A stretch of 64,000 bases of DNA from a virus (IMGVR_UViG_3300021400_000341:2595-66594); one strand, 5' to 3'. Counted from the stretch's first letter, positions 3,302 to 62,856 are shown. A program made the numbers and translations. Notes: generated by a model not told the origin, from the sequence alone.

Positions 3302-3321
3302 TAGAAAAGGAGTGATGATAT

Positions 3322-42574: not shown

Positions 42575-42631
42575 TCCTTTTTACAGGCTCAACTCACTGG
42601 TTGCCTGAGGGTGCTCTTGATATTATCTCCA
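42575..42631 (-). ncRNA. Conserved structured 5' leader, copy A
   Basis: GGAGAUAAUAUCAAGAGCACCCUCAGGCAAC-CAGUGA-GUUGAGCCUGUAAAAAGGA. Confidence 0.75.
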
Positions 42632-42702
42632 CACCAATATATTTATTATTTTTTATGACGCAATAAATTATAGCCGGTAAATATTATACCAGTTATAATT
42701 TT

Positions 42703-43041
42703 TTAGACGTTTCTACTAAATACTGTTAAAGCCTCTTCATTAAGTTTACCAATGTACTTAGCTTCCTTTTCACGAAGCTTTCTTAATATTATCTTATCAG
42801 ACTTTGACATATCAAAACTGATAATTACATTTAGTTCACTATCGTTAAAAGTTACTATTGTAGGTGATAGATTACCGGACTGGTGTCTTTCACCTCTATA
42901 CACGTAACAAATCCTATCAGATTCATTTTCGTGTAATTTATTTGACGGCTGTACACCATTTATTAAGGCATATGTACCGTCATTCAGCAGATAGATTTGA
43001 TAATCTTCATATCTGTTGATATGGTTCTTTAATTTAACCAT
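42703..43041 (-). CDS. Hypothetical protein (putative early)
   Basis: SD AAGGAGG; TTATACATAAT motif at 43122-43132. Confidence 0.7.
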   Translation of the reverse strand: MVKLKNHINRYEDYQIYLLNDGTYALINGVQPSNKLHENESDRICYVYRGERHQSGNLSPTIVTFNDSELNVIISFDMSKSDKIILRKLREKEAKYIGKLNEEALTVFSRNV

Positions 43042-43153
43042 TTTGAATTCCTCCTTTATGATTAAAATAAAGTGGCTATCTCCATAATGAAGATAACCAC
43101 TTCTTATTTTATTACACTAATATTATGTATAATTAAAAATACATTTAAATACA

Positions 43154-44854
43154 TCAACAGCCATCTATGATATATAATAAATCATAAGTTAATTTATTTA
43201 TATTAACTTCTATAGGTTGTCCTGTTAATTCTTGATTATAATAATTAACATATGTAAACTTTGTATTTATAAACGGAGATATTATACTTATAATATATCC
43301 CGGTTTAGATTTTTCAAGTTCACTATATTTCTCATTAATCAATCTTTTGTATATATCACTTTGTCCTATAGTGATTAAATACTTTTCATTCTTAATTATT
43401 CTATTATTAGTATTACCATACTTGTTACCTGTTAATATATAAGCTAACGGAGCATAGTTTTGTAAATCTACAGCTCCTTTACAATCAACACATCCATTAT
43501 TGTATAATAATATGTTTTTAGTAATTATTAATAACTTAGTTTGATCTCTTTTTGTTAACATAGCAACAGTTTTTGCTGAACCAAAATATTTAGCCCAGTA
43601 ATTATATAATAAATTCATTTGTAATTTATCATATTTATAATTTTCCATGAAATAATCTATTTCTTCATCACATATGTTTTCTCCATACATTTTCCATATG
43701 TAATCCATTTGTGTAGATATATTAACATCATTAAATACAACTTTACCCTCATCTATTTTTTCAAGATTCATTTCAAGTTTATCCATACCTGATAATCCAT
43801 CATCACCATCACGGTCTAAAACTATCTCAGTATGATTTCTTGCTAATTTCTCTTTACAGAAGAAGAATAATTGACATCTTAATAATGTTTTATTTAAACC
43901 TATTATAGATTCATTATATCCACCTTTTAAACTATTCCATGTAGACGGAAAAGTATATTTTACAATATTCTCACTTATGAAAGTATGTCTTAAGAATAAA
44001 TCTATATTAGTATTCATATCTTTTCCTAATATTTCTCTTTGCTTATATATAGGTGTATTGTAAGATTGATGCTCAGCTACTTTAGTTTTTACATATACAT
44101 ATAATTTGTTATATATATTAATACCTTCTCTTTTTACAGAGAAAATATCAAATAGCTTAATGTAGAAATTGTATATAATATCATCATTCTTATCTACCTT
44201 TATATTATTGATAGCTAAAAAGTGAAATAATACAGGAGCTATACATCTCATACCAAATGATATTCTAAGTAATATTTTAATATGAATATTTTTAAACTCA
44301 AGACTTTCTAAGTGTTTCTTTTTCTTTTTATTATAATTGAGAGTCTCAACAGTTTCACTTTCAATATCATCAATATAATTATCTTCAACCATATCACATA
44401 TTTTATCTACCATAGTATCTGTAAACATGAATTTATAGATATATGAAATAAGTTGATCATAATTATCAATAGTGAATCTTCTCTCTTTATCAATCATATA
44501 CTTTAGTTTTAAATAAGCTAATAATAACTCATTTTCAGTATCGTGAAATTTCATAAAATAATTTATATACTTCACAATAACCGGTAATTGATTTTCATAT
44601 GAATTTTTCTTTATGATAAAAGTATTATAATTCTTAATATTCTCAGCATTAAAATACTTATCAAAATTAATACAAAATAAATTCCTGTCCTGATACACTT
44701 TCATATCAGAAGCTTTTGGTTTCCACTTAGCAATCTTACAAACCTTATCATTAGGTTTTTTAAATTTAGCACCAATAACGAAACCATTATTATCGTAAAC
44801 GTATTCATCGTTTACTTGTTCTGCTATTATTTCATTTGTATTATTTACCTCCAT
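43154..44854 (-). CDS. Probable non-virion RNAP promoter-specificity (sigma-like) subunit, AR9 gp226-like
   Basis: Helical protein of fitting size, two genes from the chaperonin as in AR9 gp226/gp228 (recalled numbering), with its own early-type motif. Sequence match not verified. Confidence 0.5.
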   Translation of the reverse strand: MEVNNTNEIIAEQVNDEYVYDNNGFVIGAKFKKPNDKVCKIAKWKPKASDMKVYQDRNLFCINFDKYFNAENIKNYNTFIIKKNSYENQLPVIVKYINYFMKFHDTENELLLAYLKLKYMIDKERRFTIDNYDQLISYIYKFMFTDTMVDKICDMVEDNYIDDIESETVETLNYNKKKKKHLESLEFKNIHIKILLRISFGMRCIAPVLFHFLAINNIKVDKNDDIIYNFYIKLFDIFSVKREGINIYNKLYVYVKTKVAEHQSYNTPIYKQREILGKDMNTNIDLFLRHTFISENIVKYTFPSTWNSLKGGYNESIIGLNKTLLRCQLFFFCKEKLARNHTEIVLDRDGDDGLSGMDKLEMNLEKIDEGKVVFNDVNISTQMDYIWKMYGENICDEEIDYFMENYKYDKLQMNLLYNYWAKYFGSAKTVAMLTKRDQTKLLIITKNILLYNNGCVDCKGAVDLQNYAPLAYILTGNKYGNTNNRIIKNEKYLITIGQSDIYKRLINEKYSELEKSKPGYIISIISPFINTKFTYVNYYNQELTGQPIEVNINKLTYDLLYIIDGC

Positions 44855-44908
44855 TTTATTTTTACCTCCAATATATTTTTATGTGCAATTATATAATATA
44901 TAATTTTT

Positions 44909-45790
44909 TTATTTTTTAGTAGATTTTTTAGCTGTAACTTTATTTTTTCTACCGCCTGCTTTTACAACTTTACTATTATTAGATTTATCTTTATAAGTAC
45001 TCGAATTTGCTTTTCTTTTATTAATTCCTTTTATTACACTTGGTCTATTTTGATCCAAATCTTTTGCTAATTTACCACCATTATCTCTTAGCTTCTTTTC
45101 CTTAACAGCAGTTGCTTGTAAGTCATTATTTATTTCAGCCTTAAGTCTTCTCTCAAGACTAACTACATCTTTAGATATATTAACTTCTTCTGTATCTTGA
45201 ACTCTACTAAAGAATTTATTAGGGTCTTTAGTTCCCCACATTCTAAGATACATCTTACTGAAATATAATAATCTATGGTCAAGCATATATCTACAAGCAT
45301 AGTAAATAGAAGAGTCATATGATAATTCATATTTACTATTAGCTTTATCAGGAAGAACATTCAATGCACCTACTGGAAATTTATCATATAATGATTCTAT
45401 TAAATATCCTTCTAATTTATATAGTGAAGCATATCTATAAACAAATCCCGGACTGTTTGAAAAGAATTGTACATAGTACTTCCTAAGATCGCCTCTCTTT
45501 TTTAAAAGGTCTTTATCAGTAAAAAATTGTATAATAACATCATATTTTGTAATATGAATATGACTTTTGTCACCTTTTTTAATTTCGGACTCTGATGGTA
45601 CTTGTATATGTATAAAGAAATTATCTTCATATTCCAAAGCATTTACAAATTTAATACCTTTATTAGTTTTAGAGAATTTTAAATATCTATCCTCATAATC
45701 AGTTTTTTTAGTAAAGTCTTTTCTGTGAAATGGATTTTCTAAAAAATCTTCTAAAGTTTGGTCAGATATATTTATACTATTTAAGGGCAA
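44909..45790 (-). CDS. Hypothetical protein with a basic C-tail
   Basis: Lies between the chaperonin and the sigma-like gene. Confidence 0.7.
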   Translation of the reverse strand: MPLNSINISDQTLEDFLENPFHRKDFTKKTDYEDRYLKFSKTNKGIKFVNALEYEDNFFIHIQVPSESEIKKGDKSHIHITKYDVIIQFFTDKDLLKKRGDLRKYYVQFFSNSPGFVYRYASLYKLEGYLIESLYDKFPVGALNVLPDKANSKYELSYDSSIYYACRYMLDHRLLYFSKMYLRMWGTKDPNKFFSRVQDTEEVNISKDVVSLERRLKAEINNDLQATAVKEKKLRDNGGKLAKDLDQNRPSVIKGINKRKANSSTYKDKSNNSKVVKAGGRKNKVTAKKSTKK

Positions 45791-45806
45791 TTTAAATCAC
45801 CTTACC

Positions 45807-47648
45807 TTAACGAAGAACTAATTGGTTACCTGTTATTAATAAGGAAATTAAATCGATTATAGCTTTCAATATCTCTTTATCTGTTTCAGCACTATTTATT
45901 ACGTTCCCAGTAAAATCTTTATGTCTAATATCATAAACTACATTAGAATCTATTGATTTATTAATTATATTATCAATAACTTCTTCATCTACCATAACAT
46001 TAGATAATACTGTTTTATATACATTATAAAAGCCTTTATATAAAATATCTATGAAAAGTTTTGTAGTCTCATCTATATTAGTATCATCTTTTAAAGATTT
46101 TAATTTTCTTAATATAGTTAAACTACATCCGGGAACTATACCATTATCATATGCAGAAGCTGCTGCTTTTACAGAATCATCAACAACATCTTTTTTATAT
46201 CCTAAAGATAATTCACTATCTGCAGTAACTTCAATAACACCTGTCTTTAATTTCAAAGAATAATATCTTTTCTGTTTCTCAACCATATCAATACTAAATA
46301 CACCCATAGTTTCACATTTCTTACGAATCTCTTCATATGAGTCTTTAGCATCTTCAACAAATTGATTGTATAGTTTTTCATCATAACAAAATCCTGAGAA
46401 AGTACTCTCACTTAATCCTATCTCAGATTTTCTTGCATAACCTACAACAATACCATCTTTTTCATTGAATTTATAATCAAGAACATCAGTGTCTTTATTG
46501 TATAATGATATAGAACCATCACTGGTAACAACTTTACTATTTTTAATGTTTCTATTATTTACATTGAATAAGGTTGTTAATTGTGTACCTGAATTAAGCT
46601 TTTTTATAATATCACTAGCCATCTCTTTTGTAATAATAGTTGTGTTAAGAAGCATAGCTAAATCGTTTAATTTAACCTTAGATATTCCTGCCAATTTAGT
46701 ACATGTTGTAAGTACTAAACTAATAGTACCTAATCTCTTATACTCTAATAATAAATCTTTACTTATTACGTTATCTAATGCATATTCATCATAAAATGGA
46801 GCAATACAAACTAATTTTCTTCCACAGTGAGTTGAAAATCCGGCTAAACTTTTGAGTATATGATCATAAATATATCTATCTACTTTATGGTCAAATATAA
46901 TAAAATCAGCTTCATCTAATAGTAAAGTTGAATTATCATTATTTATATAAAGTTTATCAGTTAAAGATACATCTATATTATAACCATTTATTATTTTATA
47001 AGGTAGTGATGTTGTTGCAGACATACTACCTTCTGTAGTAACAGTAATAGCAGGATATTTTAACTCTTCATATAAATTACTTATACTTTCAGTAATTGAG
47101 ATATCTCCATTTGAAGATATATCAACAACTTTACTTATATAATCTTTTAATTTATCACTATCTTCAGTTTGTATTGATATTGATTTTTCATTAATATCTT
47201 TTAAAAGAATATCTTTGATATTATCAAAAATATCAAGTATATTCTTAGGAAGAATATTTTCATTCTTAAGTTTTTCCTTAATCTTGTAATATTCTTTATA
47301 TATAGTATTTGTAGCAATAATAGCTGTCGTAGTACCATCACCTACAGTGAAGTTTAATCTACGACATATACTCATTGCGATATCACATATAACCTGATCT
47401 AATTTCTTATCAAAGGCTATATTCTTCATTATAGTAAATCCATCTTTAGTATTAAAATAAGACGGGTATACTGAAATAAAAGCACCTGCTCCACCGGGAC
47501 CAAATGACTTTGATAATTTTTCCCAAAGTATATTAAATACTTTAGCAACCCTCTCTTCAAACGCATCCTCATCAATAACATTTACTGAGGGCTCGGAATC
47601 AAATTGATAATCAATGAAATTAACATCTTCTGTTTTTTTAAATTCCAT
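45807..47648 (-). CDS. groEL: Phage GroEL-like chaperonin
   Basis: SKSFGPGG, KDGFTIMKNI, VGDGTTTAII, DVVDDSVKAA...GIVPG. Confidence 0.9.
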   Translation of the reverse strand: MEFKKTEDVNFIDYQFDSEPSVNVIDEDAFEERVAKVFNILWEKLSKSFGPGGAGAFISVYPSYFNTKDGFTIMKNIAFDKKLDQVICDIAMSICRRLNFTVGDGTTTAIIATNTIYKEYYKIKEKLKNENILPKNILDIFDNIKDILLKDINEKSISIQTEDSDKLKDYISKVVDISSNGDISITESISNLYEELKYPAITVTTEGSMSATTSLPYKIINGYNIDVSLTDKLYINNDNSTLLLDEADFIIFDHKVDRYIYDHILKSLAGFSTHCGRKLVCIAPFYDEYALDNVISKDLLLEYKRLGTISLVLTTCTKLAGISKVKLNDLAMLLNTTIITKEMASDIIKKLNSGTQLTTLFNVNNRNIKNSKVVTSDGSISLYNKDTDVLDYKFNEKDGIVVGYARKSEIGLSESTFSGFCYDEKLYNQFVEDAKDSYEEIRKKCETMGVFSIDMVEKQKRYYSLKLKTGVIEVTADSELSLGYKKDVVDDSVKAAASAYDNGIVPGCSLTILRKLKSLKDDTNIDETTKLFIDILYKGFYNVYKTVLSNVMVDEEVIDNIINKSIDSNVVYDIRHKDFTGNVINSAETDKEILKAIIDLISLLITGNQLVLR

Positions 47649-47712
47649 ATTTTGTATACCTCCTTTTTAAGTAAATTATATTGTTGTTAGTTTAATAATT
47701 TATTTTTATAAG

Positions 47713-48408
47713 TTATTCTGTACATGTTCGCACATAAGATAATTTAAATGGATTCTCTTTATATAATTCATTAAAATCAAATCTTAAATTACCATCATTA
47801 TCAATATTATAACTATAATCAATAGCTAAAGTAATTGAAGACATTTTTAATTGGTCTTTATCTTTTAATTTAAAAATATTTCTATAATCTGAAAAGAAGT
47901 ATGTTGAGTTGTTTTTAGTTAAATCTATCAATTCATCTATATTATAAATGAACTTATTATCTGTATTAGTTTTAGCATCTAAGTGTTTCTTTACATAAGG
48001 ATTTTCATAAGGGTAATATATGATAACATCTTTACATACTTTAAGAGTCTTTACTTTCCTTGGTACATCTAACAATAATAGATTTAATGCATGTTCATAG
48101 AATACTTCATTTGTTTTTAATTCATCCTCAAATAACTTATCTAATTCTTCATTACTTATTTTATCAGGATATCTATTTAAATCATACAGTATATTTACAT
48201 TATTTCGTTTTACATACCATTCTAATAATCCTGTTTCACTTAAATAATCTATATCTTCTAATTTTAATATTTTATATAAATTCTTATTATACTTCATTAA
48301 TGATAAAAATCTATAATAAGGAGCTTGTAACATATCAGCATATTCTATAACAACATATTCCGAATTTAAAAAAATATTAGCACTATCAGCAGGCATATTA
48401 ATAAACAC
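47713..48408 (-). CDS. Hypothetical protein
   Basis: ORF with SD GAGGTG. Confidence 0.7.
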   Translation of the reverse strand: MFINMPADSANIFLNSEYVVIEYADMLQAPYYRFLSLMKYNKNLYKILKLEDIDYLSETGLLEWYVKRNNVNILYDLNRYPDKISNEELDKLFEDELKTNEVFYEHALNLLLLDVPRKVKTLKVCKDVIIYYPYENPYVKKHLDAKTNTDNKFIYNIDELIDLTKNNSTYFFSDYRNIFKLKDKDQLKMSSITLAIDYSYNIDNDGNLRFDFNELYKENPFKLSYVRTCTE

Positions 48409-48471
48409 CTCTTTCTTGAAAATATTAGAGTATAAGAATTTCTTATACTCTAATAATATTAATTTATTAAC

Positions 48472-49170
48472 TTATAACATATCTCCTATTCCGGAAAAAC
48501 TGGATACCGGAGCATTGTAATCATTCTGTGTATTAGATTGATTACTCTGTGTATTAAAATTAGCACTTCTATTAGCTTTAAAAGAATTATCTAAATTTAT
48601 ACTATGTGCTGAATCTCCTAAAACATTAACAAAATTTTTAAATTTATTATATACAAATAATAATTCACTATAACTTGTTTCAGTCTTAGGTTCATTTGTA
48701 ATAGCATCTATTACAATCGTATTTGTATTAAATTTATAAGTATATGCATTTGTAGTATCATAACTACCATCAGTATTTACAGGAGTTAATGTTAAGTATA
48801 CATTATCTGTACCATTTTCTTTCTTATAAGAAAATGTGGTAAGTATTTTTTGTCCTTTTACGCTAACTGATATCTCTTTACCATTATCTTGGTTATTGGC
48901 ATCTAATCTGGGTAATATATATTTACCAATAGCATTTGCTAATGCAGTTGTATTTTCAACAGTAAGAGCAGTCTGAATTCTCTTATTATAATCATATTGT
49001 CTTAATCCTTCAGATGAAACATTTTGTATAGGATTAATTTTTATAGAAATTTTATCACTCCAATATGATAATTGAAGTGATGCTGTATCACCAAAAAATG
49101 TTTTTATATTAGTATTTACATTATCAATTTTATTATTATTATAATTAGTTGTATTATTATTTGCAAACAT
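48472..49170 (-). CDS. Hypothetical protein, possible ssDNA-binding protein
   Basis: Beta-rich core and low-complexity N/Q/S tail ending GIGDML; weak inference. Confidence 0.35.
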   Translation of the reverse strand: MFANNNTTNYNNNKIDNVNTNIKTFFGDTASLQLSYWSDKISIKINPIQNVSSEGLRQYDYNKRIQTALTVENTTALANAIGKYILPRLDANNQDNGKEISVSVKGQKILTTFSYKKENGTDNVYLTLTPVNTDGSYDTTNAYTYKFNTNTIVIDAITNEPKTETSYSELLFVYNKFKNFVNVLGDSAHSINLDNSFKANRSANFNTQSNQSNTQNDYNAPVSSFSGIGDML

Positions 49171-49198
49171 GTAAGTTTACCTCCTTAATTTAATTTAT

Positions 49199-49339
49199 TT
49201 ATTTTATAACAGCATTTCCACAATGTGGACATTTGTATATGAAATCTAAAGATGGTTTATAATCTGTTTTATTACCACCTACTGTAAGTTTATCCATTAT
49301 ATTACCACATTTAAAACATATGCTATTTAATGGTATCAT
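49199..49339 (-). CDS. Zn-ribbon mini-protein (46 aa), not in the ORF track
   Basis: MIPLNSICFKCGNIMDKLTVGGNKTDYKPSLDFIYKCPHCGNAVIK: two CxxC pairs. Confidence 0.7.
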   Translation of the reverse strand: MIPLNSICFKCGNIMDKLTVGGNKTDYKPSLDFIYKCPHCGNAVIK

Positions 49340-49365
49340 ATCTTTCTTCAAAATAACCCCCATTT

Positions 49366-49680
49366 CTAAAAATTATCAAGATCTAATAAATTATTGTTTT
49401 CACCTAATAAATCACCATAAGAAAGCCATCTTATAATTATATCATAAATATCAGTACATTTACTTCCTTCAACTAATAATATTTCTTGAGTATTATTTTT
49501 TACAAGATATAATTTATCAGGTTCTAATAAATCCTCATTTACATCAGTTTCAGGGTTATAATTATCATTTTCATAATGATGTACAGGATAAACAAATCCT
49601 TTTTCATATACAATCTTATCTGAATTATCAAGTGTATATATGACAGATATATTATCAGTTGTAAGTTTTATATATTTCAT
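49366..49680 (-). CDS. Hypothetical protein
   Basis: ATGA overlap with 49677-50483. Confidence 0.65.
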   Translation of the reverse strand: MKYIKLTTDNISVIYTLDNSDKIVYEKGFVYPVHHYENDNYNPETDVNEDLLEPDKLYLVKNNTQEILLVEGSKCTDIYDIIIRWLSYGDLLGENNNLLDLDNF

Positions 49681-50483
49681 ACATCATCATCCTCATCAAT
49701 ACTAAATTTACTATCTTGATATTTTTTAAGTATTCTATTTCTTACAATACTTTCTATATGATAAAGGAAATCATAATTTACCATATCAATATATTTTCTT
49801 GTAAAGTTTCCTGTTATATTAAACTTATCATATCCTTCTTTCATGAATCTTGTTTCTAATGAAGAATCATCATCACAATTATCAAGGAAATCATCTATAT
49901 CTATATTAGATTTAAGAATACTTTCTATAATAGTAGGTAATGATGATAATATGTAAACATCAACAGGGTCAATAGAATCTTTCTTAAAAGATATAGTTGT
50001 AATATCTTTTTTCTTATTTACATTATCTAAATAAGTATCTCTATTTGCTTCTATTTTATTTAATATGAAGCATATAAAATTCTGTTTTATATTTATGATA
50101 AAAAATCTATATACAAAATGAATTAAATCATCTTGTTCATCTGGTGATAAATTATCGAATTCAGGAAATCCTATGTCAAAATATTCTTTAAACATATTTT
50201 GCATAAATATATAAAAATCATCTCTTAATTCTTCTAATTTATCCAGTTCTTCATCTTCATAAATATTTGCATTGTCTTTACTCATTTTATACATATTTAT
50301 GAATGTAGTGACATGGTCTCTTTTACCATATTCAAGGACGTCTTCAAATTGAGATTCTATATTTTCCTTAATCAAATTCAAAGGCATCTCTGATAAAAGC
50401 ATATCCACATCAAATTCATTTGGTTTATATTCATCATTAATATCAAACATATTATTTATCATCCTTTCTAATAAATATTTCAT
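49677..50483 (-). CDS. Hypothetical acidic protein
   Basis: Long ORF in an operon. Confidence 0.7.
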   Translation of the reverse strand: MKYLLERMINNMFDINDEYKPNEFDVDMLLSEMPLNLIKENIESQFEDVLEYGKRDHVTTFINMYKMSKDNANIYEDEELDKLEELRDDFYIFMQNMFKEYFDIGFPEFDNLSPDEQDDLIHFVYRFFIINIKQNFICFILNKIEANRDTYLDNVNKKKDITTISFKKDSIDPVDVYILSSLPTIIESILKSNIDIDDFLDNCDDDSSLETRFMKEGYDKFNITGNFTRKYIDMVNYDFLYHIESIVRNRILKKYQDSKFSIDEDDDV

Positions 50484-50558
50484 TTAGTAAATGGTTATTG
50501 TGTATATTTAAAAATATATTTAGTTATAATATGGATTAATATTAATATCACTTTACAA

Positions 50559-50589
50559 AAAGACTGAGGGAATTTCCCTCAGTCTTTTA
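50559..50589. terminator. Terminator after infA
   Basis: AAAAGACTGAGGGAATTTCCCTCAGTCTTTT. Confidence 0.8.
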
Positions 50590-50590
50590 T

Positions 50591-50809: not shown

Positions 50810-50835
50810 AGTATTTATCCTTCCTTTATAACTAT

Positions 50836-51519: not shown

Positions 51520-51546
51520 AATATTGTCCTCCTTGTTTAATTTATT

Positions 51547-54500: not shown

Positions 54501-55761
54501 TCTTAATATTTTTACTTATATCTTTTTCAGGAACTAATCTCTTAGAAGCATTGATTTTATCTATATCAGAAAATGATAAATTATTTAATTTCAAAGATGC
54601 TTGTCTTGCTCTTAACTGTTTATCTCTTGCTGAAGATAAAGGAGTAGTAGGAACTTTCTGTTGTTGCATAAATTTATACATACCATCAATAAGCATCTTA
54701 TCATTTTCAATATCTATTTCAGCATTAGTTTTAACTAAGTCTTTACCTGATTCACTATTAACAACATCAGTGTTTACTATATTTTTTACATCACTAATCT
54801 GTTTATCTACTGAATCACTTATTTTGTCTTCAATTACTTTATTTATAATTTCATTTTTTCTATCTTCTTCAGGTTTTTTAATTTCTTCAGTAGGTTTAGG
54901 AATATGAGTTACATCAGAAACATCTTTCTTAGGACCTGTCATTTGATATTTTTCAACTAAGTTTTCTTTTATATCATCTTTTTGTATTTCAGTATCAACC
55001 AATTCTTCTTTTATTTCTCTAAAACTTAATTTATTGAATATCTTATTCATTTCAGTTTTTAATAAAGTAAAAGTCTTACTATCTGCTTTTGAAGGATTTA
55101 TTTTAAGAATATTATTCTTATAATAAATGACTATATCTATATCTAAATCAGATATGAGATTAAAGTATTTATACATTGTATAATAAATGATGAATAACGG
55201 ATTATCAATAGAATCTCTAATATTATAAGTATTAAATTTACTATATTGCTCAGCATTTATCACAACCACCTTAGTAGGATAATTTACAGTATTCTGTGAA
55301 AACCATATACTCCTAAAGAAATTCCAAAAAATATTCAGTCTTCTAACAGCTGAAAGTTTTTTAGTCATATATGTATAAATTTCAAAATACTTACTCATTT
55401 CAAAATAAGTATTTTTATTTGCAGTAGCTCCTAATAAAGTAAGTGGATGAGGCTTAACTCCTGCTATATTCATTGCATTTAAATTAGCATAAATATTTTT
55501 TCTTTCTTTAGTATCCTTTATGTAATATCTTCTATTATTTAATCTACCTGAATATAATAGATTATAATAATACATATATTGTACCGAAGCAGGTCTAATA
55601 CAATTATCTTTATTATTAATTATCTCAAAAGTATCAGCTACAGATTTACATAAAGGAAATATTAAAACACCTGTACCATTTCTACTACCTATATCTTTAA
55701 CAGGTACAAATATTTTTTTTATTTGTGTTTTAAAGTAAGGAATACTATCTATATATAACAT
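51547..55761 (-). CDS. RNA polymerase beta subunit (probably virion RNAP), lacking the C-terminal piece, with a long N-terminal extension
   Basis: YIGGNKK, STSPDGNCGITRAL, RTAMAVKQSKHVVP, YNTFEDSAVITE, GSKI...KGVVG...ARQTPS; late motif at 55794-55805. Confidence 0.85.
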   Translation of the reverse strand: MLYIDSIPYFKTQIKKIFVPVKDIGSRNGTGVLIFPLCKSVADTFEIINNKDNCIRPASVQYMYYYNLLYSGRLNNRRYYIKDTKERKNIYANLNAMNIAGVKPHPLTLLGATANKNTYFEMSKYFEIYTYMTKKLSAVRRLNIFWNFFRSIWFSQNTVNYPTKVVVINAEQYSKFNTYNIRDSIDNPLFIIYYTMYKYFNLISDLDIDIVIYYKNNILKINPSKADSKTFTLLKTEMNKIFNKLSFREIKEELVDTEIQKDDIKENLVEKYQMTGPKKDVSDVTHIPKPTEEIKKPEEDRKNEIINKVIEDKISDSVDKQISDVKNIVNTDVVNSESGKDLVKTNAEIDIENDKMLIDGMYKFMQQQKVPTTPLSSARDKQLRARQASLKLNNLSFSDIDKINASKRLVPEKDISKNIKSINPHMKKIKFNNINKDYIENVLPADMKNAFTSLNDKEMKLFIRDIEIKDHSDELNYLETYRVVLEDEKKQKHTINIDIPKFLDNKFLYIGGNKKIINRQNFYYPVVKTEENKVQIVTNYNKLFLERIGSKSISTVERLEKLIKNESVDEKSQAKILSLFKPAVPGQNNDGYISTIEYDELGKLYSEYKSDNCYIMFSQTKALDYANKHNIEIVEDEMFIGVLDNEPIMINTNTQLQNVTNYSIMDIIVNNFPEELQKEYNTTKVTKKLSYTTITIMSQTIPLMVLLVFWEGISSVIKKLDLQYYFDTRVKELKSNENFIRFKDGYMIYKEDIAIGLLMNGLKFIKTEQYTLEEFNTIEPFVDFFKTKYGRVNVLNALQNYYEFMVDPITKEILEDINLPTGIVELCIYANKLLSDEKYTWENNQTLSRVRSIEIIPAMVYKELSAAYLEYKNSGGKKKLSVPRDAVIKRLLALQTVENYDTLNPMVELEKDRTISSKGFNGVNKDRAYTEAKRTHHDTMVGLIALSTSPDGNCGITRALTLEPTITTERGYVDVKNNKKEELTDVNLFSPAELLYPLGARKDDSVRTAMAVKQSKHVVPVANSSPGLITNGCDEVIKYNLSSDYVEIAEEDGKVIDINPELNIMMVEYKSGKRKAINLGDRIDKNGGGGFYLVNKLVTNLKNGDSFKKNDTLAWHKDFFTGSKVNGVRFNLGTLEKVAITSSYNTFEDSAVITEKMANDCKTPITFCKSVVIGKNATINTIKNVGDHVDIGDVLISFDTSFEDSDLNKLLNNLSAENKDVLNENSVNEIKTKHNGTIVGIKIYSTVEADELSPSLQKIVKKYYKGILDKKKYVSAFDKENTSSLVKCGMLLNETTGKVEPNVYGVLKGNKVEDSVLIEFYVEHTDILGVGSKIAYFTALKGVVGEVIPKGYEPYSEFRPDEEISSFIGPSAILARQTPSITLTVLGNKVLVELKRKLKEIYNS

Positions 55762-55833
55762 AAAAAAATAACCATCCTTTCCTTGTATTTGATTATCTAA
55801 ATGTTTTCAGACTTAATAAATATCTAATGTAAA

Positions 55834-55862
55834 AAAGAAGTTGGGAATATCCCAACTTCTCT
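55834..55862. terminator. Terminator after the beta' C-half gene
   Basis: AAGAAGTTGGGAATATCCCAACTTCTT. Confidence 0.8.
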
Positions 55863-55865
55863 TAA

Positions 55866-57977
55866 TTATTTAGATTCTTTCTTTAATTTATCATTTCTAA
55901 GTTTATCATGTATCTTATGAATAACATCAACATCTATATCTTCTTTAAAGTAATTATCTATATAAGATGTAGAAGTTTTCACAGTAACAGTTTCATCTGA
56001 TAATAACTGTTTTTCAATATAACTAAATGATTGACCTATAAAGAAAGATTTATTATGCTCTAATGCATGGTTCATTGTTATTAACTTATAAGCAGGTTCT
56101 TCTTTATGTGAAAAATCAGGTCTAATAAATTTCTTATCAGGATCCCTTCTCATAAGTCTATTAATTATAACTTCACATGCAATACTCATAACATTTATTC
56201 CTGACTTAATTAACAAGTCTACAAATATTTGTACCATATCATGATATGTAATTCCTGTACTTATTACTTTATTAGTATTAAGCAATTTCATAATATCATA
56301 TAAAGGTTTAGTTAATTCATTATTTGTAAATATCAAGGTAAAGATTTCAGAATCAGAATCTATATCTTTTAAATATATATAATCATTCTTTCTTAATCCA
56401 ATAACTTCTTCAGTAAGATAAATATCCAAATCATCCATAGAAGCTATCTCTAATTCTTCACCTGTAATTATATTATGAATTATAAATTTAGTATCTATAT
56501 ATGAATTAAATGATGACATATCATCCAATTCATCATTTTTAATAATCTCATTATCAGGTAAATATATAGCCCAATCTTTAAGATTATATTCTGAATTTTC
56601 ATTCAAATAAATACTATCAGCAACCATATCAAAGAATTTATAAAAGTTATCATTAAACTTTATCATATTAGTTATAGTTGTTAATAAGTGTTTAGTTGAT
56701 AAAATCATTTGTTGTAACGGATGTCCAATCTCACCTGCTTCATATTCACAAACACCACTTGATATATCAGTATTTAATATAGCAGTCTTACCAAAACATA
56801 CATCACAAATTTCATCATTACTACAACAACATGTTACAGGAGACCTAAAATATAAAGTCTTTCCTATTAAACTATTATCCTTTTTAGCATCTAATGTTAA
56901 TAAAGGTGTATCAGGATTACCATCTAAATTATAATATCTGTTATTGAACTTACTAAGAACATTTTTATCAGTTATATCTATTTTCAATAAATGTCTTGTT
57001 CTACAATCATGCACTTCATTAGATAAACCAACTGTTCTTGTTATTAACCATATAATTTTAGCAAAGTATCCTGCTTTACCCATTACATCTTTATTTTGTA
57101 TTAAAGACTTTCTTGCAGCAGATGCATCTATATAATGATATGAAGGTTTATTTGCACCACCTGTTATATTACTATTATTTAAAGCAAGTGGTATTGTATC
57201 ACCGGTTATTGTAGGTTTTAAACCTTGAGATACAAAGAATTCTATAAGCTGTTTCTCTTTAATACAATTACCGGATTTTAATAACAGAGATAATCCATTA
57301 TCCATACTTTTTATTATACTAATAACTTCTTTTTGAATTTTACTTAATTCAAATTCTATCTCTGCAGGTTGTACATTTTCAGGAAATTCTGTAGCCATTA
57401 ATTCAGCTAATCTATCAGAACTTCTATACATATTTATTACATCTCTAATACTAAACTGAATATTTAATAATAAAGCAAACTTATTTAATTTAGATTGTAA
57501 ATCATAATAAATATCAGCTATAGTTCTATTTATAGTATCAGATTTGATATTGTAATACTGAAGCAATCTCAATATCTTATCATTTAAGAAATTATTTATT
57601 TTAGCAGCTTCTTCAGGAGTTTCACCATTAAAGATAAAAGTATCATTCATCACTTTATCTATAGTAGCTAATTCTGTAAAAGCGTACCATATAAATACAT
57701 TATACATGAAATTAGTAAATCTAAGTTTATGTACTTTAGTATCAGTTTTATAAAACTTAAAACTGATTTTATAATCTCTACAAGATTTATGCTCTATACA
57801 TCCTGATAAATATGAAAACAATTTTTCTTTAAAATCTATATATACATATTTATCATGTATATAATCATCTATTATATATAGAGGTTTTATATGTTTCTTT
57901 AATTCAGTAGTATTCTTAATAACTACTGTTTTATAAGTTGTATTAAAGTCTATCTTCTTCATTTTTATCACCATCAA
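55866..57977 (-). CDS. RNA polymerase beta' C-half (probably non-virion RNAP)
   Basis: GLKP...AARKSLIQNK..MGKAGYFAK (bridge helix); CRT...RSPVTC...ICDVCFG (Zn site); early-type motif upstream of the operon. Confidence 0.85.
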   Translation of the reverse strand: MMVIKMKKIDFNTTYKTVVIKNTTELKKHIKPLYIIDDYIHDKYVYIDFKEKLFSYLSGCIEHKSCRDYKISFKFYKTDTKVHKLRFTNFMYNVFIWYAFTELATIDKVMNDTFIFNGETPEEAAKINNFLNDKILRLLQYYNIKSDTINRTIADIYYDLQSKLNKFALLLNIQFSIRDVINMYRSSDRLAELMATEFPENVQPAEIEFELSKIQKEVISIIKSMDNGLSLLLKSGNCIKEKQLIEFFVSQGLKPTITGDTIPLALNNSNITGGANKPSYHYIDASAARKSLIQNKDVMGKAGYFAKIIWLITRTVGLSNEVHDCRTRHLLKIDITDKNVLSKFNNRYYNLDGNPDTPLLTLDAKKDNSLIGKTLYFRSPVTCCCSNDEICDVCFGKTAILNTDISSGVCEYEAGEIGHPLQQMILSTKHLLTTITNMIKFNDNFYKFFDMVADSIYLNENSEYNLKDWAIYLPDNEIIKNDELDDMSSFNSYIDTKFIIHNIITGEELEIASMDDLDIYLTEEVIGLRKNDYIYLKDIDSDSEIFTLIFTNNELTKPLYDIMKLLNTNKVISTGITYHDMVQIFVDLLIKSGINVMSIACEVIINRLMRRDPDKKFIRPDFSHKEEPAYKLITMNHALEHNKSFFIGQSFSYIEKQLLSDETVTVKTSTSYIDNYFKEDIDVDVIHKIHDKLRNDKLKKESK

Positions 57978-58335
57978 ATTCTATATTTTCCATAAACAAC
58001 ATATCTTTATCATACATTTTTGCTGCCATGAATTCAATTTTACAACCTCGTGTATCTTGCCAGTTATGACTAAATACAATGATATCAGCAGTAGCTAATA
58101 TTTGTATTGCCCTACCTAATAGCCATAAACTTTTTGAAGATTCATCTTCTATCCCATCTAATTGATTTACTTCTTCAAAGATTGGGTCTTCTTGTGTAAA
58201 AAATGATGATATAAATTCTATATTATCATATTCATCTTTATATTTTTCAATAAAGACTTCTTTTATATGTTCCCTTTCTTCAAGAATTTGACTGTCAGTT
58301 AATCCTGACATTGGTTGACTTATAAAAACTTTCAT
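57943..58335 (-). CDS. DUF4406 / nucleoside deoxyribosyltransferase-like protein
   Basis: MKVFISQPMSG...LATADIIVF...W..TRGCKIE...A pattern. Confidence 0.65.
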   Translation of the reverse strand: MKVFISQPMSGLTDSQILEEREHIKEVFIEKYKDEYDNIEFISSFFTQEDPIFEEVNQLDGIEDESSKSLWLLGRAIQILATADIIVFSHNWQDTRGCKIEFMAAKMYDKDMLFMENIEFDGDKNEEDRL

Positions 58336-58448
58336 TTGTTATTGTACCTCCTTAATTTTAATTAACTTATAGTTTTTATAAATATATTTTATAATACCTA
58401 AAGATAATATATAAATTATCTGAACTTTTATATAAAATATATAGAAAG

Positions 58449-59045
58449 GTGGGAATTTATATGATCGACCCAACTAATTTATACTTATTGGTAGATAATG
58501 AATTAGTTACACACTCGCATGATCAAGTTAATAGTTCCTCATCTTCTGTTGAAACTGTTTCAGAATTTACCCAGTTAAGTAATACCTACGGATTTATGAC
58601 AGTATTTAGTGTAGTGGTATTATTACTTATTACCGGGTTTATGATAATGACACAAAGAACTGCCGCAAAGAGACAGAAGAGTGAGATAACATTATTAGAA
58701 AAAGAACGAACTAATAATATGGAACAAAATAACAAAATGTACGACATAGTTATTAATGTTCAATCAGAACAAGTTTCACAATTAAGAGAGATGACAAACA
58801 CATTAAAGGTTATAAATGATAAAAGTGTTGAAACGCGTGATAAAATAACAGATATGGATATAACAATGCACCATATGGATTCATCATTAGAAAATATTTC
58901 TACTAAAGACGACACTATATTGAAAACCTTAGCTGAGATATTAGCATATGTCAAATCAAATGATCATTGCAATAAGGATATCTTAGCTAAGGTTAAAAAG
59001 ATTGATGAATTTTTACAACAAGAATATAAAATAAATAATCAATAA
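58449..59045 (+). CDS. Single-TM coiled-coil protein, possible holin-like
   Basis: TM FMTVFSVVVLLLITGFMIM followed by a coiled coil; likely start ATG 58461. Confidence 0.45.
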   Translation: MGIYMIDPTNLYLLVDNELVTHSHDQVNSSSSSVETVSEFTQLSNTYGFMTVFSVVVLLLITGFMIMTQRTAAKRQKSEITLLEKERTNNMEQNNKMYDIVINVQSEQVSQLREMTNTLKVINDKSVETRDKITDMDITMHHMDSSLENISTKDDTILKTLAEILAYVKSNDHCNKDILAKVKKIDEFLQQEYKINNQ

Positions 59046-59179
59046 ATTAAGTCTATGTTTTTTCATACCTCCTTAAAAGTCCACATACAAGAATTACTGC
59101 CACTTGTATGTGGACGCCTTCTGTTACTCAAATATATTAATATAATAAAAAAATAAGGGAGCTAGTGCTCCCCCATTTT

Positions 59180-59608
59180 TTAATTTAGATTACTATAGAC
59201 CTCCTCGCCCCTTTTGATAACAGTCTTTAACGCGTCCTCGAAATTCCCAAAATGGGAATAACGATATCCTCGTTGTGTTAACTTGCAATGTAAGTTTACA
59301 ATACGGTCACCGCTAACGATAACCATATAATTGATCACATCACCCTCTACGTGTCCCTCTAATAATGAGAGAGGGACATAGTCGATTAGTCCACAGTATT
59401 CTGCATAACTGCCATCCGGCAGCTGGAAACCATGGCTTCCGAAGTCACTAGACTTATCATTGGTTAACCAACAATGAACATACATACTGTTATCTGTAAC
59501 TCCATTGAGTCTATCTTTTAGGTCCAATGAAGCGAGCTCACTGCGATAATCCGACTTTTTTGTAGCCGGATTAGGTACTATAAACATATTGCAATTTACA
59601 TTCATCAT
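59180..59608 (-). CDS. Hypothetical accessory protein
   Basis: Follows RNA leader copy B and an early-type motif; visibly more GC-rich than its neighbours. Confidence 0.75.
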   Translation of the reverse strand: MMNVNCNMFIVPNPATKKSDYRSELASLDLKDRLNGVTDNSMYVHCWLTNDKSSDFGSHGFQLPDGSYAEYCGLIDYVPLSLLEGHVEGDVINYMVIVSGDRIVNLHCKLTQRGYRYSHFGNFEDALKTVIKRGEEVYSNLN

Positions 59609-59613
59609 AGTTT

Positions 59614-59672
59614 CTCCTTTTACAGGCTCAACCTCTTAGGGTTGCCTGAGGGGACTCTTGATATTATCTCCA
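59614..59672 (-). ncRNA. Conserved structured 5' leader, copy B
   Basis: GGAGAUAAUAUCAAGAGUCCCCUCAGGCAACC-CUAAGA-GGUUGAGCCUGUAAAAGGAG. Confidence 0.75.
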
Positions 59673-59797
59673 TCCCATAATTAATTATTTTTATTATACT
59701 TTTATTATGTATAATCAAAAAAAAAACAAAATACGCTATATTTTTGATAGTAGAAAACATTACTATAACCTATATACTAATGAAAGGAGACTATGTT

Positions 59798-60430
59798 ATG
59801 AATTATTATGATAATATTAAATTAGAGATTTACGAAGCATACGATAATGGTGAAATAAGTTATGATGAAAAAGAATATTTATTGGAAGAAGTAAATGAAG
59901 TAATATATGAAGATAGTAAAGATGTATTTAAAGCTGCTGGTATTGGTGCAGCAATAGGAGGAGCAATAGGTGCATTTAAAGGTTATAAATCATCCAAAAA
60001 ACCTAAAGATGTAACTATGAAAGATGTATGTATTGAAGATTTTAATAATACTTCAGAAGGTAAAAAACTTTTAACTGTGATAAATACAATGTATGATGAA
60101 ATTTTAGCAACAAAGCTTAAATTGGATAGATATTGTAATTCAGGTAGAACTTATTCAGATAAATCTTATGGTGATATATTAAAACTCAATATTAAAGAAC
60201 TGAATGATAAAATGCAAGAAACAACAGATAAATATAATGAAAAATTAAAAGAATATTTAGATGAGCATTTAGAAGAATGTAAGGATGACCCCGAACATTT
60301 AGATAGATTAAAAGAACTTAAAAAGAAAGTAAAATCTGAGATGTGGAAAAATATTGGAAAGTCTACTTCAAAATCCATGGATGGAGGATTTAGAGTTGGT
60401 CTTGGTTATGGTGTTATAAAAAATCTTTAA
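59798..60430 (+). CDS. Leader-bearing cargo protein (putative internal head protein)
   Basis: MNYYDNIKLEIYEAYDNGEISYDEKEYLLEEVNEVIYED; start at ATG 59798 after GAAAGGAG; late motif at 59756-59767. Confidence 0.7.
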   Translation: MNYYDNIKLEIYEAYDNGEISYDEKEYLLEEVNEVIYEDSKDVFKAAGIGAAIGGAIGAFKGYKSSKKPKDVTMKDVCIEDFNNTSEGKKLLTVINTMYDEILATKLKLDRYCNSGRTYSDKSYGDILKLNIKELNDKMQETTDKYNEKLKEYLDEHLEECKDDPEHLDRLKELKKKVKSEMWKNIGKSTSKSMDGGFRVGLGYGVIKNL

Positions 60431-60458
60431 ATGATTATGATTACACAATTTGGGTATA

Positions 60459-60490
60459 AATAAGAATGAGGTTAAACCTCATTCTTATTT
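60459..60490. terminator. Bidirectional terminator
   Basis: AATAAGAATGAGGTTAAACCTCATTCTTATT. Confidence 0.8.
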
Positions 60491-60506
60491 AATTATAAGT
60501 ATTTTT

Positions 60507-60644
60507 TTAATTCATATTACTCAATTTCTTTTTAGCCATTTCTATAGCTTCTTTTTTACTAAATCCAGCATTTATGAATTTTTTAACTAATTTATTAAGT
60601 TTCAAATATTTATTAGGTTTCTTATTAGCAAGTTTATCTGGCAT
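60507..60644 (-). CDS. Small basic protein (45 aa), not in the ORF track
   Basis: MPDKLANKKPNKYLKLNKLVKKFINAGFSKKEAIEMAKKKLSNMN; ends just before a terminator hairpin. Confidence 0.4.
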   Translation of the reverse strand: MPDKLANKKPNKYLKLNKLVKKFINAGFSKKEAIEMAKKKLSNMN

Positions 60645-60825
60645 TGATGTTTTTCTAGCTTAGCTCTATCTCTCTATCCCTTATATAATCCATTTTTAGA
60701 CCATTATCAAATGAATAATAAGTATTTACATTATTATTAAGACTAAAGAAAAAATAAATTCATTATAAAAATATAGGCTGATATTAATATCAGCCTATAT
60801 TTTATAGTTATATGTAATAAAATTA

Positions 60826-61233
60826 TTATTTATAAATATCATCTAATAAAGAATTGAATACAGATTCACCCATTATTTTATTTACCTCATTTGAAAATTT
60901 ACCAAAATCTGTAACATTATCAATTCTACCACCAGAAGCTTTACGTACTATTTCTCTATATCTACTAGCAGGTACGTCCTCAGGATTCTTATAACCCATA
61001 TCCATAATTACCTTTAGCATATTTCTAGGCGATATATGGTATTGATTCATGAGTTTTTTTATTTCACGGGGATAACCACGATCAGACAAGCGATTATATC
61101 CAAATCTATTCGCAGCATCCTCATATATTACTTCATTTACTTCCTCTAAGAGGTATTCTTTTTCATTATATGATATCTCTCCATTATCATATGCTTCATA
61201 GATATCTAATTTAATATTATCATAATAATTCAT
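60826..61233 (-). CDS. Leader-bearing cargo protein (putative internal head protein)
   Basis: MNYYDNIKLDIYEAYDNGEISYNEKEYLLEEVNEVIYED; late motif at 61267-61278. Confidence 0.7.
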   Translation of the reverse strand: MNYYDNIKLDIYEAYDNGEISYNEKEYLLEEVNEVIYEDAANRFGYNRLSDRGYPREIKKLMNQYHISPRNMLKVIMDMGYKNPEDVPASRYREIVRKASGGRIDNVTDFGKFSNEVNKIMGESVFNSLLDDIYK

Positions 61234-61333
61234 AATATACTCTCCTTTCTATGATTAATATTAATTTATATATATGTTCCATTAGATTAATATTAAATAT
61301 AGTTATATATACTGCATTCTATAATTTTTTTGA

Positions 61334-61344
61334 TTATATATCAT
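61334..61344 (+). promoter_or_regulatory. Putative early promoter motif TTATAYATHAT (representative copy)
   Basis: Also at + 26563, 62333 and - 23916-23926, 34236-34246, 43122-43132, 44893-44903, 58404-58414, 59704-59714. Confidence 0.6.
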
Positions 61345-61374
61345 AAAGGTACGATTTAGAAATGATAATTGGGT

Positions 61375-61432
61375 TGGAGATAATATCAAGAGACCCCTCC
61401 AGCAATCTAAGAGATTGAGACTGGTAAAAAGG
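61375..61432 (+). ncRNA. Conserved structured 5' leader, copy C (divergent)
   Basis: GGAGAUAAUAUCAAGAGACCCCUCCAGCAAUCU-AAG-AGAUUGAGACUGGUAAAAAGG, with compensatory stem changes. Confidence 0.7.
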
Positions 61433-61439
61433 CAAAAAG

Positions 61440-62216
61440 ATGAAAATAACAAAAACTTATGAAATTAAGGAATCCGCCAAGCTTAGAAGAGCAGATCTGT
61501 ATAAAGTAGATCTTAAAGAGGTAAACCTTAAGGGGGCAGACCTTTACAAAGCAAACCTTGAAGGTGCAAATCTTCAGGGGGCAAACCTTAGCAAAACAAA
61601 TCTTGAATCAGCAAACCTTTGGTATGCAAATCTTCAGGGAGCAGACCTTGAAGGGGCAGACCTTAGTGGGACAAATTTTGAGGATGCAAACCTTAGGGGA
61701 ACAAACCTTTGGCGTGCAAACCTTAGTGATGCATGCCTTAAATGGGCGGACCTTAATGGAGCAAACCTTAAATGGGTAGACCTTTACAAAGCAAACCTTG
61801 AAGGTGCAAATCTTCAGGGGGCAAACCTTAGCAAAACAAATCTTGAATCAGCAGACCTTAGTGGAGCAAACCTTCGGGAAGCCAACCTTAGTGATACATG
61901 CCTTAAATCAGCAGACCTTAGTGGAGCAAACCTTAAATGGGTAGACCTTAGATGGGCAAAGCTTTACAACGCAGACCTTAAATGGGCAAACCTTGAATGG
62001 GCGGACCTTAAGAGCACTAACCTTGGAAATACAGACCTTACAGGTGCAAACCTTTACAAAGCAAACCTTGAAGGTGCAAATCTTCAAGGGGCTAACCTTG
62101 ATGGAGCTAACCTTGAGGGAGCTAACCTCAAGGATGCTGACATTACAGGTGCAAACTTTCAGGGGGCACATTACTTAGGGAATCTAAGTGATTTGATAAA
62201 GAAAGGGGCTCAATGA
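61440..62216 (+). CDS. Pentapeptide repeat protein
   Basis: About 45 tandem A[DN]Lxx repeats; underlying 15-bp DNA periodicity. Confidence 0.95.
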   Translation: MKITKTYEIKESAKLRRADLYKVDLKEVNLKGADLYKANLEGANLQGANLSKTNLESANLWYANLQGADLEGADLSGTNFEDANLRGTNLWRANLSDACLKWADLNGANLKWVDLYKANLEGANLQGANLSKTNLESADLSGANLREANLSDTCLKSADLSGANLKWVDLRWAKLYNADLKWANLEWADLKSTNLGNTDLTGANLYKANLEGANLQGANLDGANLEGANLKDADITGANFQGAHYLGNLSDLIKKGAQ

Positions 62217-62372
62217 GCCCCTTATTTTTTTATTTATGAACCATATTTATGAACCATATACTCTATATAAAATAGTAATATAATTTATATTAATATTTAA
62301 AGAGAATATTATCGTATTTTGTTTTTTTTTGATTATATATAATAAAGGTATATTAAATAACATACTACGGTG

Positions 62373-62430
62373 TGGAGATAATATCAAGAGCACCCTCAGG
62401 CAACTTTAATAGGTTGAGCCTGTAAAGGAG
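62373..62430 (+). ncRNA. Conserved structured 5' leader, copy D
   Basis: GGAGAUAAUAUCAAGAGCACCCUCAGGCAAC-UUUAAUAG-GUUGAGCCUGUAAAGGAG. Confidence 0.75.
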
Positions 62431-62822: not shown

Positions 62823-62856
62823 AAAGAATGGGGATTCTTAATCCCCATTCTTTTTT
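62823..62856. terminator. Bidirectional terminator
   Basis: AAAGAATGGGATT-CTT-AATCCCCATTCTTTTTTT between convergent genes. Confidence 0.75.

Follow-up and report, generated by a model that had tools for sequence, protein, structure and literature searches.

The hairpin of T4 gp43 beside the Shine-Dalgarno sequence (SD), the RegA sites and the coat-protein operator hairpins of the RNA phages are translational operators, and the T4-type PeSL cassettes (promoter-early/stem-loop) flank hypervariable ORFans. To our knowledge little has been established about post-transcriptional control in jumbo phages which bring their own RNA polymerases. The present analysis concerns a 64,000-nt stretch of DNA from an uncultured virus (IMGVR_UViG_3300021400_000341:2595-66594), in the following called the window, which carries four copies of a short hairpin in front of four genes. 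To judge from the sequences this element very probably is a new cis-acting regulatory RNA motif in the 5' leaders of early genes, because dozens of related uncultured phages have the hairpin in nearly the same form. Structured motifs in the 5'-UTR (5' untranslated region) which are bound by Aca1 or Aca2 repress early anti-defence operons (PMC13551039). The early promoter of phage AR9 has been mapped experimentally as AAATATATATTAT-(6N)-G+1 and transcription from it is by the virion polymerase (PMC5312081). In the AR9 transcriptome paper 5'-UTR motifs are only mentioned, with neither a name nor an assigned role.

Structure and conservation of the hairpin

A first-pass annotation of the window described the element as beginning with an invariant 17-mer, GGAGATAATATCAAGAG, followed by NNCC as a variable spacer. 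The 17-mer occurs exactly four times in the window (42614-42630(-), 59655-59671(-), 61376-61392(+) and 62374-62390(+)), and when up to three mismatches are allowed these are still the only matches, compared to 0.41 expected from shuffled sequences; the four copies (A to D, Table 1) thus stand as annotated. Behind each 17-mer follow, in this order, a second hairpin (P2), an A-rich stretch, an SD-like sequence and an ATG. The linear reading of the 17-mer did not survive, as it had overlooked a stem. The five nucleotides on the 5' side of the 17-mer (GGUGU, GGGAU or GGGUU) pair with its last G together with NNCC (GCACC, GUCCC or GACCC), so that NNCC is the 3' strand of a covarying stem, P1, and the 17-mer is the inside of a hairpin. 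The core hairpin has 26-30 nt and consists of P1 with 4-7 bp, an asymmetric internal loop with GGA on the 5' side and AAGA on the 3' side, a helix of 3 bp formed by GAU and AUC (P1a), and an apical loop, which is AAU in the window. P1 is closed by a U.G pair. Both P1 and the GAU/AUC helix were predicted unprompted by RNAfold and RNAalifold.

In an alignment of 72 distinct rows P1 is paired in 92.2% of the cases, compared to 31-52% in controls with slid 3' partners. Both sides have changed in 87 cells, compensatory changes are found at four of the five pairs with up to five pair types per position, and the covariation score was reached by none of 500 shuffles. The covariation is upheld in an alignment much larger than that of the four window copies. 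Most closing pairs of P1 are U.G, which on the other strand would give C-A mismatches, and the orientation of the hairpin is always that of the downstream gene; for these two reasons we regard the element as RNA rather than DNA.

The inside of the hairpin hardly changes. Positions A3-U6 and U11-G17 are the same in all 72 rows, and G1 and G2 are each replaced by A one time. The same invariance is seen in the 11 rows which were found by the covariance model only and hence were not picked by an exact seed, and among the matches listed by a scan in which the GGA triplet was left free there was no variant in a leader-like context. Variants of the apical loop retain the small helix: the loop can be AAU, AGU, AAC, GAC or GAU, it has 6 nt in L119, and L121 has GAUG-GAAA-CAUC; in L065 one U-A pair of the small helix has become U.G. 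At one further locus (L058:1501-1553, which is G002:C1:63381-63433) the loop is duplicated or rearranged, GGAGATATATCAAGAACAGATGATTATCAAGAG, with P1 intact; this is possibly a decaying or an expanded variant.

Three more pairings had been proposed from the window copies. The small GAU/AUC stem is the helix of the core. The GAG/CUC stem, considered as a mini-stem or a pseudoknot, was rejected as part of the core because CUC is found in the window lineage only. The 3' hairpin P2 with its compensatory changes in copy C is real: RNAalifold recovers it from the four window copies with two compensatory pairs in copy C, and the relatives add covariation to the upper stem. In the window lineage P2 is made up of a conserved lower stem, a 3' GA bulge and the covarying upper stem. 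As it is confined to some lineages in our alignments, P2 is classed here as a lineage-specific accessory hairpin outside the core. Other lineages carry a different accessory hairpin, P0, which abuts P1 on the 5' side.

Distribution, leaders and cassettes

The element had been presented as a local repeat, which turned out to be too narrow: when collections of viruses, genomes and metagenomes were scanned, 78 distinct copies of the hairpin came out, from many related uncultured phages. An exact scan of IMG/VR with the 17-mer gave 35 loci, about half of which are the hairpin, the remainder being chance matches in coding sequences (11 from one giant-virus RING protein). With an 18-mer, exact scans gave 20 loci in 185,579 species genomes and 90 loci in metagenome contigs; in the latter P1 has at least 4 bp in 46 of 77 distinct contexts. 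The genuine copies from species genomes belong to large contigs which look like phage and were binned with Lachnospiraceae, Clostridia and other metagenome-assembled genomes (MAGs) from rumen or gut, one contig of 258 kb having seven. The covariance model R1 found 1-7 copies in each of five complete genomes of 223-275 kb with terminal repeats. All six carriers tested (these five and G011) have a homologue of a subunit of the AR9-type virion RNA polymerase (vRNAP) which is 30-52% identical to the window protein. The homologue in G011 (G011:C1:121-4173, the record of L010, 31.9 kb and flagged for terminal repeats) has one in-frame TGA.

Five cultured relatives (AR9, SA1, LPJP1, phiR1-37 and S6) contain no genuine copy of the hairpin, and the early leaders of AR9, when read directly, are short and have no such hairpin. 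A blastn search of the leader against 50,697 phage records gave nothing relevant. Rfam 15 gave no match in the window at the gathering thresholds, and at E<=10 none of the matches overlaps the element at any of the four loci, in line with the annotation, in which it was not recognised as a known riboswitch or ribozyme. The literature searched gave no description of the motif, and no exact 17-mer or 15-nt core in DNA or RNA letters. The hairpin thus appears, from where its sequence is found, to be a motif of an uncultured clade of AR9-like jumbo phages in rumen and gut samples, some of the carrier contigs being binned with Clostridia. One copy has a peculiar neighbourhood: on a Bacilli MAG contig (CAKPBC010000001.1; L093:5424-6350) the hairpin, at about 6046-6071, is some 60 nt past the last, decayed repeat of a CRISPR array with nine repeats. 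This array adjoins cas1 and a gene for a 925-aa protein without a Pfam family, and the 85-aa open reading frame (ORF) after the hairpin ends in a repeat-like stretch, as though the cassette were inside the end of the array.

An SD-like sequence and a start codon follow 75 of the 78 distinct hairpins. The spacer between hairpin and SD is 0-4 nt in 38 cases, 5-17 nt in 17 and 18-40 nt in 20, and nearly all of the 20 long spacers fold as a hairpin, which in the window is P2. Because the long spacer folds in this way the core would be near the SD in space also in these leaders. Some leaders are apparently larger. In G003:C1 at about 38660 (L019) and in G005:C1 at about 9190 (L032) the core has, about 75 nt upstream, another copy, which is partial (GAGAUAAUAUCUC in G003) and forms a perfect hairpin without internal loop; these leaders seem to exceed 100 nt and to contain several conserved blocks. 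In G001 (275 kb) an upstream hairpin, GUGACG and CGUCA around a loop of 13 nt, occurs only together with the three core hairpins at 72634, 173259(-) and 235883(-). It follows a TGATATAAT-type promoter located about 95 nt upstream, and the conserved leader is accordingly much larger in G001.

The window is 64 kb out of a virus record of 66.6 kb in IMG/VR and has a GC content of 26%. The completeness estimate of CheckV, 28%, implies a full genome of roughly 240 kb. The vRNAP beta-subunit homologue (Table 1) is about 30-35% identical to the proteins of jumbo phages of the Bacillus AR9/PBS1 type and of Staphylococcus, Listeria and Yersinia; the homologue in Yersinia phage phiR1-37 carries the annotation 'structural protein'. 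Further genes code for a DnaB-like helicase and a GroEL-like chaperonin. On the basis of this gene content the window phage is placed among the AR9/PBS1-like jumbo phages as an uncultured member, and the virion RNA polymerase is the enzyme expected to read its early promoters.

Exact matches to TTGATTATAYATMATAAA are present at three places in the window only, ahead of copies B, C and D, copy A being without it. The promoter motif at these places, TTGATTATAYATMATAAAGGTA, resembles the mapped AR9 early promoter. If the geometry of the AR9 promoter is applied, the transcripts of B, C and D would start 19-21 nt before P1, and the element would be downstream of the transcription start site (TSS). 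That three of the copies lie downstream of the TTATAYATHAT motif, as annotated, is therefore correct, and it is the exact long form of the motif which they follow. The shorter TTATAYATHAT is also found before genes without the hairpin (at 8643, 23926(-), 26563, 34246(-), 43132(-), 44903(-) and 58414(-) of the window) and probably serves this phage as its general core of early-type promoters; the copies with the hairpin have a longer version with an upstream T-run. In G004 the early-type promoter motif is matched strictly 13 times on the + strand. In five of these cases the hairpin is inserted after an A/U leader and before the SD, in the other eight the SD follows directly, so the hairpin marks only some of the genes behind this motif.

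A terminator-like hairpin ends each of cassettes B, C and D (Table 1). The window thus has ORFans with their own promoter and terminator stem-loop, as in PeSL cassettes, where 'early' is meant by similarity to the AR9 consensus. The PeSL-like shuffling of cassettes which had been suggested is borne out by one locus, L027, which is 95-96% identical to the window at 1-2052 and 2084-3624. Between these two parts L027 has 820 bp which are absent from the window and which consist of two cassettes, each with a terminator and T-run, a promoter, a leader and an ORF; the second has a P1+P2 leader 90% identical to copy B. The junctions of this single event are near a shared terminator (GAGGGTTAATCCCTC) and not within the 17-mer. 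This indel between near-identical genomes is direct evidence that cassettes of promoter, leader, ORF and terminator are gained or lost as units. The hairpin is restricted to self-contained cassettes of this kind. The leader had also been suggested to double as a recombination handle; the near-invariance of the motif, where P1, promoters and flanking genes all differ, rather argues for a function of its own and not for such a handle alone.

The four window ORFs behind the hairpin share no similarity and each has its SD and ATG (Table 1), in agreement with the annotation. Among 70 hairpin-linked proteins which were scanned, six are pentapeptide-repeat proteins, one matches the MYG1 exonuclease, a few have single matches to other families and the rest have no family. 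The pentapeptide-repeat family is the only recurrent one and includes the protein of cassette C. Since pentapeptide-repeat proteins often are DNA mimics, a role in anti-defence or host takeover is plausible for those behind the hairpin. One of the hairpin copies in G004 precedes a gene for a PhuZ-like tubulin. An autoregulated conserved gene behind the hairpin was considered and rejected, as the linked proteins are unrelated except within lineages.

Table 1. Leader hairpins, promoters and genes of the four cassettes, and the vRNAP gene, in window coordinates
Feature	Position	Strand	Basis
Copy A core hairpin, P1 GGUGU/GCACC around GGA - GAU(AAU)AUC - AAGA	42610-42635	-	alignment, folding
Copy A P2 (CAGGC-AAC..GUU-GA-GCCUG); SD-like AGGA 42575-42578; ATG 42569	42584-42607	-	folding
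ORF after copy A, 58 aa, no Pfam or PHROG family; overlaps 63-aa ORF 42205-42396	42393-42569	-	
Cassette B promoter-like motif TTGATTATACATAATAAA, AR9 early-promoter type; predicted start about 59697, 21 nt before P1	59701-59718	-	analogy, PMC5312081
Copy B core hairpin, P1 GGGAU/GUCCC	59651-59676	-	alignment, folding
Copy B P2; SD AAAGGAG 59614-59620; ATG 59608	59623-59648	-	folding
Cassette B ORF, 142 aa, no family; terminator-like hairpin 59148-59181(-)	59180-59608	-	
Cassette C promoter-like motif TTGATTATATATCATAAA; predicted start about 61351	61330-61347	+	analogy, PMC5312081
Copy C core hairpin, P1 GGGUU/GACCC	61371-61396	+	alignment, folding
Copy C P2, lower stem CCAG..CUGG, upper stem CAAUCU/AGAUUG; compensatory changes relative to A, B and D; ATG 61440	61399-61424	+	folding
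Cassette C pentapeptide-repeat protein, 258 aa; terminator-like hairpin 62203-62223(+)	61440-62216	+	
Cassette D promoter-like motif TTGATTATATATAATAAA; predicted start about 62350	62329-62346	+	analogy, PMC5312081
Copy D core hairpin, P1 GGUGU/GCACC	62369-62394	+	alignment, folding
Copy D P2; SD AAGGAG 62425-62430; ATG 62437	62397-62422	+	folding
Cassette D ORF, 123 aa, no family; terminator-like hairpin 62823-62853(+)	62437-62808	+	
Virion RNA polymerase beta-subunit homologue of AR9/PBS1-type jumbo phages, 1404 aa	51547-55761	-	protein similarity

Possible functions of the hairpin

The first-pass annotation proposed a new cis-regulatory RNA and let this depend on three points: Rfam, covariation, and the position relative to the TSS. 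The element is structured and has no match in Rfam, it covaries, and it is downstream of the TSS predicted by analogy with AR9, which lends the proposal support in part. We regard the hairpin as a new, widespread and well-supported RNA motif and infer that its function is regulatory.

About half of our confidence goes to the reading that the hairpin is a cis-acting leader RNA which serves as the binding site for a conserved trans-acting factor, and that this factor controls translation or stability of a subset of the early mRNAs. The internal loop together with the GAU/AUC helix would be the recognition surface, and the factor could be either a protein or the 30S subunit itself. As the ribosome-binding site (RBS) is next to it, occupancy of the site would set translation initiation, and thereby the lifetime of the mRNA, for the early accessory genes as a group, in a mode resembling that of Aca2 or of T4 gp43 and RegA on their leader operators. 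A specific recognition site is suggested by the invariance of loop and small helix, when P1, apical loop, promoters and genes all vary, by the fixed orientation at the SD and by the divergence of the proteomes. Since the motif hardly varies where the core proteins of the phages fall to 30% identity, a host factor, or a very conserved one, is preferred to a phage regulator that evolves fast.

A number of observations weigh against a leader operator of this kind. The core fold is not unusually stable, with z-scores of -0.4 to -1.6. The majority of the instances were seeded by an exact 17- or 18-mer, by which the apparent invariance is inflated, and the GAU/AUC helix, being invariant, is consistent with pairing but unproven by covariation. 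Neither the position of the TSS nor the sense of the effect, be it repression or activation, goes beyond inference. The search for a partner was negative in several respects: the L7Ae family (PF01248) is absent from the five complete carrier genomes, with positive controls matched in seven genomes; CsrA is not found in the five either; RegA (PF01818) and RegB (PF10715) had no match in them, the control genomes being silent too; and no helix-turn-helix (HTH) or known RNA-binding domain is found among the 70 hairpin-linked proteins. A phyletic screen for proteins present in the carriers and not in AR9 or LPJP1 left only a baseplate-like and an HExxH metalloprotease-like protein, both of which are unconvincing.

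The second of these has the motif HEIGH. It is one of only two ORFs of G004 which are common to G001, G003 and G005 and undetected in AR9 and LPJP1, and it has a homologue in the window, a metalloprotease-like protein of 408 aa (24429-25655(-), phrog_2767). Leaders controlled by CsrA have a GGA in a loop and a second GGA overlapping the SD, 10-63 nt apart. The present leaders have two GGA sites at a compatible spacing, one in the loop and one at the SD; a CsrA reading would leave 11 further invariant bases unexplained, and no phage CsrA is found in the carrier genomes. An RNA acting in trans by complementarity to the loop was also looked for; the 8-mers occur at chance frequency and mark no conserved locus.

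Among the alternatives to a factor-controlled operator, a ribosome-docking enhancer or 5' stabiliser survives best, and we consider it possible, if rather unlikely. It postulates that the GGAG of the loop and a hairpin next to the SD recruit or hold the 30S subunit, so that early mRNAs are favoured over host mRNAs and the 5' end is shielded from exonuclease. Comparable elements are the standby site and the STAB-SD element of the Bacillus cryIIIA mRNA. The conserved loop has two SD-like strings, GGAG and AAGAG, and the hairpin abuts the SD in 38 of 75 leaders and is otherwise brought close by P2. Near-invariance in phages whose proteins have only 30% identity would fit a conserved target like the ribosome, and a phage-encoded partner was not found in the searches of the carrier genomes. 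It should be noted, however, that the hairpin is present on a subset of the early genes only, that the early genes of G004 without it have equally good SDs, and that pairing to the anti-SD accounts for GGAG only and not for the invariance of AUCAAGAG. A crude scan of the rRNA of E. coli, which is not of the host clade, for a matching internal loop gave nothing meaningful. In a related form, which we likewise hold as a tentative minority view, the hairpin would be a self-sufficient RNA module which binds the host 30S subunit or another universal host component and marks early mRNAs for privileged translation or survival just after infection. If this is true, such a hairpin would correspond, in bacterial viruses, to a viral translation enhancer, with mobile gene cassettes as its carriers.

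A site for processing or for entry into decay is unlikely. Here an endoribonuclease would cut the loop, for instance at GGAG in the manner of T4 RegB, remove a protected 5' end and shut off the early mRNAs at the switch. T4 RegB acts on early mRNAs and is a precedent; GGAG is invariant and in an unpaired loop, and those copies of which the promoters were examined (B-D of the window and those of G004) are behind early-type promoters. Against it, the RegB family was undetected in the five carrier genomes, though with a silent control, and a cut upstream of the SD would leave the coding part translatable.

A K-turn or K-loop bound by a protein of the L7Ae family was given little chance. In such a structure P1 would be the C stem and GGA the 3-nt bulge, with GA opposed by the stem-adjacent GA, and the pattern stem-NNN-GA...GA-stem, formally that of a K-turn, is indeed exact in every copy. 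The NC stem, however, would have a single U-A pair besides mismatches, the GAU/AUC helix which competes with this fold is lengthened by the insertions in L119 and L121 (in L121 to 4 bp with a GAAA loop), the invariance of U11, C12, A13 and A14 is left unexplained, and the five carrier genomes have no L7Ae gene, in a search which matched its positive controls. Also very doubtful is a small riboswitch-like aptamer, in which the invariant loop binds a metabolite or signal and modulates the access to the SD. An invariant internal loop between covarying helices beside the SD is the usual signature of small translational riboswitches; yet no Rfam class matches, there is no conserved alternative pairing which sequesters the SD, the distance to the SD is variable, and the downstream genes are unrelated ORFans without a common metabolic theme.

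That the element has no RNA function and is a DNA recombination handle or a protein operator travelling with mobile cassettes, for which the cassette indel between 96%-identical genomes and the 9-mer GATAATATC, a 4+1+4 DNA palindrome, could be quoted, is hardly credible, because P1 has compensatory changes and strand-specific G.U pairs, loop insertions of 3 nt are tolerated which break the spacing of DNA half-sites and are neutral for the hairpin, the orientation is always that of the downstream gene with an SD and start codon almost always next, and conservation of the motif extends to places with wholly different promoters and flanks.

Significance and relation to known systems

With its strong support from covariation, this motif of some 26 nt labels early accessory genes, 1-7 per genome, in a wide clade of uncultured phages, and its small size makes it directly amenable to pull-down, probing and reporter tests. 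It can be used as a handle for finding early 'moron-like' accessory genes, which are candidates for host takeover or anti-defence, in metagenomic contigs of jumbo phages, and as a handle for finding the trans-acting factor; it could also be a portable part for expression control in Firmicutes. The cassette indel shows a route by which early accessory genes are exchanged.

One resemblance is found within the cultured relatives themselves. In a group II intron of AR9 (L078, 120451-120486(-)) and of LPJP1 (L086, 120851-120886(+)) the distal portion of domain VI has a like layout, with a covarying stem, GGA, GAU..AUC, AAA and the stem again. The model gives it only 12-13 bits (E about 1), the 3' strand has AAA and not AAGA, and it is inside a complete intron (RF02004 and RF00029). 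RF00029 is absent from G001-G005 and from the window, by which identity with domain VI was rejected, and the resemblance may be a coincidence.

With the operators of T4 and the RNA phages the hairpin shares the small size, the location by the RBS and the sequence-specific unpaired bases, and RegA is similar in that it defines a regulon of early mRNAs. It differs by having these bases in an internal rather than an apical loop, and no homologous RegA or RegB was detected in the carrier genomes. The likeness to the PeSL cassettes is in the organization: small ORFans have their own early promoter and come after the terminator stem-loop with T-run that ends the previous unit, and a cassette is gained or lost between near-identical genomes. 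The conserved element is here not the terminator stem-loop, however, but an additional structured leader within the transcript and next to the SD, which is kept in phages with different promoters and terminators.

The Aca-bound leaders likewise have a short conserved hairpin between the TSS and the RBS, in early accessory or anti-defence genes which are strongly transcribed. Several operons of a genome may share one motif, and binding of the protein is shown or proposed to block the access of the ribosome. Unlike these, cassettes of the window type are without an Aca-like HTH gene (0 HTH Pfam matches in the 70 linked proteins), and sequence and structure are unrelated. The Aca motifs vary with the lineage of the protein, whereas the loop of the jumbo-phage hairpin is almost invariant across divergent phages.

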